From a virus (lineage: Duplodnaviria > Heunggongvirae > Uroviricota > Caudoviricetes), in IMG/VR virus record IMGVR_UViG_2563366768_000033: a stretch of 25,942 nt of DNA; one strand, given 5' to 3'. Below, one piece after another: positions 19,837 to 20,195 of this stretch. A program made the translations under genes and the position numbers. How positions within the stretch are numbered: position 1 is the first letter of the stretch; each line of letters opens with the position of its first letter. The notes below the pieces were generated by a model. That model was not told the DNA's origin. It saw only the letters and a list, made by a program, of their open reading frames with translations, and ran no database searches.

Positions 19837-20195
19837 TGATACCTGCATACATTAAATACCTTTATTCTGGCTTGCTTACTGTCGTCATTTCCAGGTATAG
19901 TTTTTCCGCTGTCGCAAAATCGGCAGCCGGAATTGGCGTTCCGTATAACTTATTGGCGACAATTGACGCCCCTTGCGTCTTTTTTTACGTCGTAGCTCAG
20001 GCACAACCATTTTCAGGGCTGTGGTGTTTATGCTTACACCATGGTTCTATCGAGATAATGGTAGTCCGGGCGGGGCAGCCTTCGGGCTGGCCGGTTTCCA
20101 ATAAGGCCGGTTACGCCAACCCCGTTCGGGCTGCCACCAGTGAAATTGGCGTTTCCGGTGGTAGCAATAACCGCTACTTATTGGAGGCTGCCATC

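Follow-up and report, generated by a model that had tools for sequence, protein, structure and literature searches.

The c4 RNAs of phages P1 and P7 are the founding members of the Rfam family C4 (RF01695). Each is a processed antisense RNA whose segments a′ and b′ pair with the upstream sites a1 and b1 and with the downstream sites a2 and b2, and the downstream site lies over the ribosome-binding site of a small Icd-type open reading frame (icd-ant). The locus described below shares this pairing arrangement with P1 and P7, and its antisense RNA is predicted to be processed as well; it differs in what is controlled, which in P1 and P7 is an antirepressor gene (ant) in a plasmid prophage and not the replication operon of a satellite. 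For phage P4, the elements t1, t4 and timm and the frames kil and eta are known from the primary work on that phage.

The CI RNA of P4 is processed from an untranslated transcript and pairs with the sequences seqA and seqC, which results in premature termination of transcription (PMC3632133, PMC4825925); its part complementary to both is seqB (PMC4825925). The P4 seqA leader and CI RNA have structural homologues in the Rfam families isrK and C4, respectively (PMC3632133, PMC4825925). In Salmonella, the IsrK RNA of Gifsy-1 is described as a translational activator (PMC4825925). An isrK leader followed by a C4 RNA is also present in lambdoid phages, among them 2H10 and Stx phages, in the same order as in the locus studied here. 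In phage 2H10 (L084) this cassette occupies positions 1364–1552 and in an Stx1a phage (L085) positions 1399–1587, in both cases inside ORFs annotated as antirepressor.

The window is a stretch of 25,942 nucleotides of viral DNA (Caudoviricetes; IMG/VR record IMGVR_UViG_2563366768_000033), of which positions 19837–20195 are the region of interest; the features of this region, vis, and the operon downstream are on the plus strand. Judged from its sequence, this region is a homologue of the P4 immunity region, and it very probably serves a P4-like satellite prophage of E. coli O157:H7 as its switch for immunity (lysogeny maintenance). With the same high degree of confidence, and by analogy with P4, the switch would consist of a short leader RNA and a processed antisense RNA, the latter pairing with two flanking targets and thereby keeping the replication genes off. 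Window positions 19639–20381 align with P4 positions 8180–8961 at 69% DNA identity across the vis-cI-kil region, the P4 stretch so covered comprising ORF88 (vis), a frame that once bore the annotation 'cI/ash gene product', and the beginning of epsilon. An Rfam scan of the whole window at gathering thresholds returned three matches: a far-upstream tRNA, isrK, and C4. The P4 sequence itself yields isrK and C4 matches in the same order. An earlier note on this DNA had proposed that the region corresponds to the CI immunity RNA of P4 together with the repeats it targets, with the alpha operon controlled by RNA–RNA pairing, and homology, Rfam matches, covariation, and synteny all support that proposal.

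The likeness to P4 extends to the order of the elements, the presence of both RNA families, a homologous promoter motif, the terminator, the kil ORF, and the long eta frame, with vis upstream and alpha downstream in both. The two differ in the spacer between leader and CI RNA, which measures 107 nt in P4 and 68 nt in the window, and in the number of ORFs between kil and alpha, of which P4 has three (epsilon, orf151, and orf106) and the window two. Many E. coli O157:H7 genomes carry the locus at 100% identity, and 307 genomes have it at 99% or more. RefSeq shows proteins only at this locus, and RNA features are absent from it; a 2017 study of EDL933, on the other hand, had already listed Rfam C4 and isrK entries inside genes (PMC5331693). 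Regarding base composition, the region had been described as a GC-rich leader, which holds for the C4 part (64.8% GC) but not for the promoter part (36.6%) nor for the region as a whole, at 50.4% versus 44.3% for the window.

A PLE-like sigma-70 promoter is predicted at 19872–19901, with a −35 hexamer TTGCTT (19872–19877), an 18-nt spacer, and a −10 hexamer TATAGT (19896–19901), placing the predicted transcription start at around 19908. P4 carries TTGCCT-18-TATAGT at the equivalent place, and the hexamers TTGC.. and TA(T/C)AGT are kept across 61 distinct upstream sequences of relatives. A generic promoter scan of the window did not call the PLE-like site. The leader RNA, at 19908–19985, matches the isrK family (RF01394) over the full length of the model (1–77 of 77) with 71.9 bits, a gathering score of 50, and an E value of 8.2e-14; it is the counterpart of the P4 'seqA' leader and comprises two hairpins, a single-stranded stretch, and a Rho-independent terminator equivalent to P4 t1. 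The name given to the isrK family refers to Hfq binding. This terminator (19965–19986; GACGC-CCCTT-GCGTC followed by T7) was found by a terminator scan independently of the Rfam match and coincides with helix 3 of the isrK model. Between leader and CI RNA, the minimum free energy (MFE) fold places a hairpin at 20015–20048, which has 13 bp in the window and is conserved among relatives, all five of its consensus pairs showing compensatory changes in 68 distinct spacers. It is situated outside both Rfam families and might have a role in precursor processing or in pausing.

The antisense RNA itself, the homologue of P4 CI, occupies 20054–20141 and consists of a 17-bp closing stem, a UUCG hairpin (20074–20092), a second hairpin, and a single-stranded junction. 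A covariance-model search had been suggested as a check in the earlier note, and the Rfam scan gave the C4 match (RF01695) over model positions 1–87 of 87 with 84 bits, a gathering score of 45, and an E value of 1.9e-15. Folding, suggested alongside it, showed the region to be strongly structured: the C4 segment alone folds at −50.8 kcal/mol, its MFE structure is identical to the family structure, and its z score against dinucleotide shuffles is −4.92 on the plus strand and −1.23 on the minus strand. Within the alignment of 73 distinct C4 sequences 99.8% of cells are paired, with seven pairs showing compensatory change, and within the isrK alignment of relatives 95.5% are paired, with four compensatory pairs; both alignments were fitted to the models, and under the fairer control of slid partners the paired share falls to 28%–53%. 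Double-change cells in C4 number 89 against 20.5 expected, and none of 500 shuffles equals the observed value for either C4 or isrK.

The mature CI RNA is predicted to extend from about 20060 to 20139, a length of some 80 nt. An R-C-C triplet on the 3′ side of the closing stem is invariant in all 73 C4 sequences, and stem and triplet together look like the acceptor end of a tRNA. Both P4 CI RNA and P1 C4 RNA are listed among the substrates of RNase P (PMC5499578), and processing of the window's CI RNA by this enzyme may be inferred from the two phages. Of the stem-loops that had been picked out by eye, the UUCG hairpin GGCAGCCTTCGGGCTGGCC is indeed present, once in the window, and constitutes CI hairpin 1, albeit at 20074–20092 instead of approximately 20062–20083. 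Its supposed second copy, CCCGTTCGGGCTG at 20121–20133, does not form a separate hairpin but is the 3′ strand of the 17-bp C4 closing stem; it shares the 9-mer TTCGGGCTG with position 20081, 44 nt upstream.

A search of the surrounding plus strand for sequences complementary to the C4 RNA showed two exposed CI segments, each with two targets, one in the leader and one downstream. Segment b′ (UCCAAUAAG, 20097–20105) forms the loop of CI hairpin 2, and segment a′ (ACGCCAA, 20113–20119) lies in the single-stranded CI junction. In the leader, target a1 (TTGGCGT, 19933–19939) forms the loop of leader hairpin 2 and is complementary to the junction, and target b1 (CTTATTGG, 19949–19956) lies in the single-stranded part and is complementary to the hairpin-2 loop. 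Downstream of CI, target a2 (TTGGCGT, 20146–20152), which is part of what is termed 'seqC' in P4, again matches the junction, and target b2 (CTTATTGGA, 20177–20185) matches the loop and overlaps the kil Shine-Dalgarno sequence GGAGG at 20183–20187. The calculated duplex energies of the window's CI RNA are −25.1 kcal/mol with its own seqA region and −37.1 kcal/mol with its own seqC region, neither of which is equalled by any of 500 shuffled targets (−16.1 ± 3.3 kcal/mol for the seqC duplex). A conserved hairpin over seqC that would hide the Shine-Dalgarno sequence was also looked for, and the consensus gave just a weak 4-bp CUCC/GGAG helix of −2.27 kcal/mol.

Two further copies of CTTATTGG in the window, at 8281–8288 and 10283–10290, were considered as additional CI targets and rejected, as they are 8- to 10-mer matches only, with a chance expectation of about 0.4 per strand; they are probably coincidental. 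One of them comes immediately after the start codon (ATG) of an ORF for a Pin-type recombinase (MLIGY...), and the other is intergenic and has the 10-mer ACTTATTGGC in common with the leader site.

Systems of this type are well known and the locus is not new as a kind; its recognition sequence, on comparison of the two, is different from that of phage P4. The window's CI RNA carries CCAAUAAG and ACGCCAA, whereas that of P4 carries CCUGUGAA and UUCUCAC, and the P4 targets, TTCACAGG (twice) for the loop and GTGAGAA (twice) for the junction, all differ from their counterparts in the window. All six P4 sites therefore differ from the window's yet stay complementary to one another, and it is mainly at these positions that alignments of the P4 and window RNAs diverge. 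Duplexes of P4 CI with the window's targets reach −10.6 and −20.3 kcal/mol. Since both recognition segments differ and the P4 CI duplexes are weaker, this element should be heteroimmune to P4. Phage 2H10 resembles the window in its junction (ACGCCAA) and leader site (TTGGCGT) and differs in its 24-nt spacer, its loop (CCGAUAAC), and the downstream gene, which is annotated as an antirepressor. A second C4 RNA listed for EDL933 has a loop and a junction that both differ from those of the window, and hence no cross-talk between the two is expected. As far as the literature search went, no study of the recognition pair CCAAUAAG and ACGCCAA was found.

Using the alpha primase as a handle, 80 P4-like loci were fetched from Enterobacterales genomes and scanned with covariance models built from the window/P4 pairs. 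C4 was present in 75 loci and isrK in 74; isrK invariably came first, followed after 59–107 nt by C4, and both lay upstream of alpha. Covariation was then assessed in 76 P4-like loci, including the window and P4, where 7 nt or more of perfect complementarity counted as a match. The junction matches the downstream site of its own (cognate) locus in 100% of cases and the leader site in 98.7%, compared with 0.6% in each case for non-cognate pairs of loci of different type. The corresponding values for the loop are 93.4% (versus 3.9%) for the downstream site and 89.5% (versus 0.9%) for the leader. The possibility that the apparently non-cognate loci are decayed systems was discarded, given that nearly all are G·U or single-mismatch variants and only one (L058) is truly mismatched. 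The 76 loci have 15 different loop cores and 7 different junction cores, combined in at least 39 ways, and the b′ loop comprises the most variable columns of the C4 alignment. The combination of loop and junction found in the window recurs in only one other locus, that of an Enterobacter MAG (L017).

The same stretch of DNA is crossed by a long open frame. This frame (19833–20390, 185 aa) crosses the promoter, leader, spacer, and CI RNA before ending as kil, and its start overlaps the stop of vis (ATGA). Its P4 counterpart, at 1695–2294 of the P4 locus (L001; 199 aa), we take to be eta/orf199, with kil as the last 65 codons (Forti et al. 1999). Amino acid identity between the two frames is 57%, and much higher in the kil part. 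The frame had been dismissed as a single implausible ORF; there is indeed one long ORF, the others in the region being 41–63 aa, but as a homologue of P4 orf199/eta it is not implausible, and it is open from upstream of isrK through kil in 67 of 76 loci, with spacer lengths that differ by multiples of three. The first translated gene after the leader is kil, a small Icd-like ORF of 64 aa (20196–20390). The GGAGG that had been reported ahead of its ATG is in place, and the last 64 codons of the long frame match NCBIfam phage_ICD_like (1.2e-18). The length of kil is 63–66 aa in 74 of 76 loci.

Column entropies at codon positions 1, 2, and 3 set kil apart from the rest of the frame. In kil they are 0.46, 0.39, and 1.02, the pattern of a typical protein gene, which is not seen in the leader (0.50, 0.46, and 0.38), the CI RNA (0.46, 0.53, and 0.50), or the spacer (0.88, 1.08, and 1.05). 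Our reading is that the eta-like frame is kept translatable while its product upstream of kil is not selected. A frame that is open without codon-level selection agrees with the model for P4, where immunity would be overridden by translation of RNA made from a promoter further upstream. The Pfam family Phage_ASH (PF10554), which matches residues 22–132 of the frame (4.8e-30), that is, the translated promoter, leader, spacer, and CI RNA, may largely reflect conservation at the RNA level. In the Pectobacterium and Dickeya loci (L061–L067) the distance from C4 to the kil ATG is 54 or 56 nt, compared with 55 or 57 nt elsewhere, and with this 1-nt difference the upstream frame, still open, ends just before kil and is not fused to it.

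It is highly unlikely that the region is a plain protein-coding gene, encoding the 185-aa 'Icd-like' or Ash protein, in which the RNA matches are incidental. RefSeq does place a protein (WP_000973389.1, 'Icd-like protein') over 19833–20390 with no RNA feature, the Phage_ASH match is strong, and the frame is open in most relatives, where indels come in multiples of three. Coding, however, leaves the compensatory base pairs and the three-way covariation of short segments unexplained, and the Pectobacterium/Dickeya clade, with the upstream frame and kil in different frames, shows that the fused protein is not conserved. Upstream of kil there is no third-position excess, and on this codon-position evidence a protein-only account was rejected. 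The leader is a full-length isrK match, the Gifsy-1 mechanism is documented (PMC4825925), and lambdoid phages carry the isrK-C4 cassette before antirepressor genes, so that the leader could be imagined to act as a short RNA in trans that opens a read-through transcript and activates the downstream ORF, in the manner of Gifsy-1 IsrK, instead of being itself bound by the C4/CI RNA. This is very improbable, as sites a1 and b1 of the leader co-vary with the CI loop and junction, which points to pairing between CI and leader. The variable segments of the leader, moreover, are identical in sequence to the sites downstream and not complementary to them, and the leader therefore cannot pair with seqC; the genetic context, too, is a P4-type replication operon and not an antirepressor.

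The island as a whole holds IS elements, truncated integrases, and frameshifted genes, and a locus in such surroundings could be what is left of a P4-like element that has decayed and lost its function. This we regard as extremely doubtful, because the satellite core genes are all intact, the six recognition sites are perfectly cognate, the RNA structures are undamaged, and conservation across many O157 genomes is complete.

The proposed mechanism joins the RNAs, structures, promoter and terminator motifs, two-segment complementarity and covariation, open frame, and gene order observed here to processing, termination sites, autoregulation, and bypass, all four inferred from work on P4 and P1. 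The PLE-like promoter is predicted to be constitutively active and would give rise to an untranslated transcript from around 19908, the first 78 nt of which form the isrK/seqA leader, ending at terminator t1. RNA that reads through t1 would include the spacer hairpin and then the 88-nt C4 element, from which the stable CI RNA of about 80 nt would be excised, its 5′ end being generated in P4 by RNase P. With b′ exposed in the loop of hairpin 2 and a′ in the junction, the CI RNA could pair with a1 and b1 in the nascent leader, and, by analogy with P4, this would favour termination at t1 and make CI synthesis self-limited. The same two segments would also pair with a2 and b2 and, as b2 lies over the kil Shine-Dalgarno sequence, block the translation of kil. 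Transcription of the untranslated kil RNA would then end before the alpha operon, leaving the satellite quiescent; newly arriving satellites that share its specificity would be repressed too. When transcription enters by way of vis, ribosomes on the eta-like frame would cross the leader, the CI RNA, and the targets, and the block would be bypassed. A P2-type late-promoter dyad (TGT-N12-ACA), which would mark a PLL-like promoter, was sought at 19300–19575, upstream of vis, and none is present there, the six matches in the window equalling chance expectation; the entry point of the bypass transcript was consequently not located.

Each recognition module is found at three separate places, and its changes are accompanied by changes in its two targets; to mix the modules, short patches must have been exchanged repeatedly, or have converged, at six separate sites. 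We tentatively suggest, with slightly more doubt than conviction, that P4-like satellites, and lambdoid phages with the same cassette, use a two-module combinatorial RNA 'immunity code', and that the long eta/'Ash' frame, the basis of Pfam family PF10554, is possibly maintained solely to let ribosomes pass and disarm the RNAs, rather than for a protein. If this is true, modules common to satellites and to temperate phages unrelated to their helpers, such as ACGCCAA in 2H10, make partial cross-talk between them possible. The O157:H7 satellite is predicted to be heteroimmune to P4 as well as to satellites of a different type, which bears on coexistence and superinfection; with the catalogue of specificity variants at 76 loci, ideas on the diversification of RNA-based immunity can be tested. 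For annotation, the gain is two regulatory RNAs and their targets where RefSeq shows only a 185-aa 'Icd-like protein'.

The gene content around the switch is that of a satellite. From Pfam and RefSeq, the gene order is int, defence genes, delta, psu, sid, vis, eta/kil, two small ORFs, and alpha; int, delta, psu, sid, vis, and alpha are all present, and synteny is as in P4. Directly upstream of the switch, at 19576–19836, lies the homologue of P4 ORF88, a vis/AlpA-like helix-turn-helix regulator (Pfam Phage_AlpA, 1.2e-19) that aligns with its P4 counterpart. The operon predicted to be under control (20387–23278) comprises a 73-aa ORF (20387–20608), an ORF with a DUF5375 domain (20608–20931; Pfam, 1.7e-49), and the alpha primase-helicase, whose 796-aa ORF contains the Pfam domains Zn_Ribbon_Prim, Toprim_3, D5_N, and Pox_D5 and ends at 23278. 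The start of alpha is ambiguous: the ATG at 20888 (796 aa) would overlap the DUF5375 ORF by 44 nt, and the RefSeq start 57 nt later, at 20945, gives 777 aa, which is the length of P4 alpha.

Further upstream, a P4-type integrase is encoded at 12142–13374 and delta on the minus strand at 17064–17336. Within this interval (12142–17336), RefSeq places proteins of an ABC-three-component system, one of them frameshifted, and an AAA ATPase; the stretch between int and psu is a known defence hotspot of P4-like satellites (PMC9122126). At the position of sid (17890–18642, minus strand), RefSeq gives a 'septation initiation protein', a name that looks like a mis-expansion of 'Sid'; its C-terminal half has a weak match to Pfam Psu (7e-10). 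Window positions 1369–9714 begin with a tRNA (tRNA-Thr in RefSeq, next to proA) and a truncated integrase, with an IS3-family element in the matching genome, and continue with a lambdoid remnant that includes a LexA-family repressor, a Cro/CI-family regulator, CII, and broken replication genes, as well as a tail-fibre segment that is invertible and has a pin recombinase. With this lambdoid remnant coming first on the tRNA side, the P4-like element is the second of two tandem islands at the tRNA.
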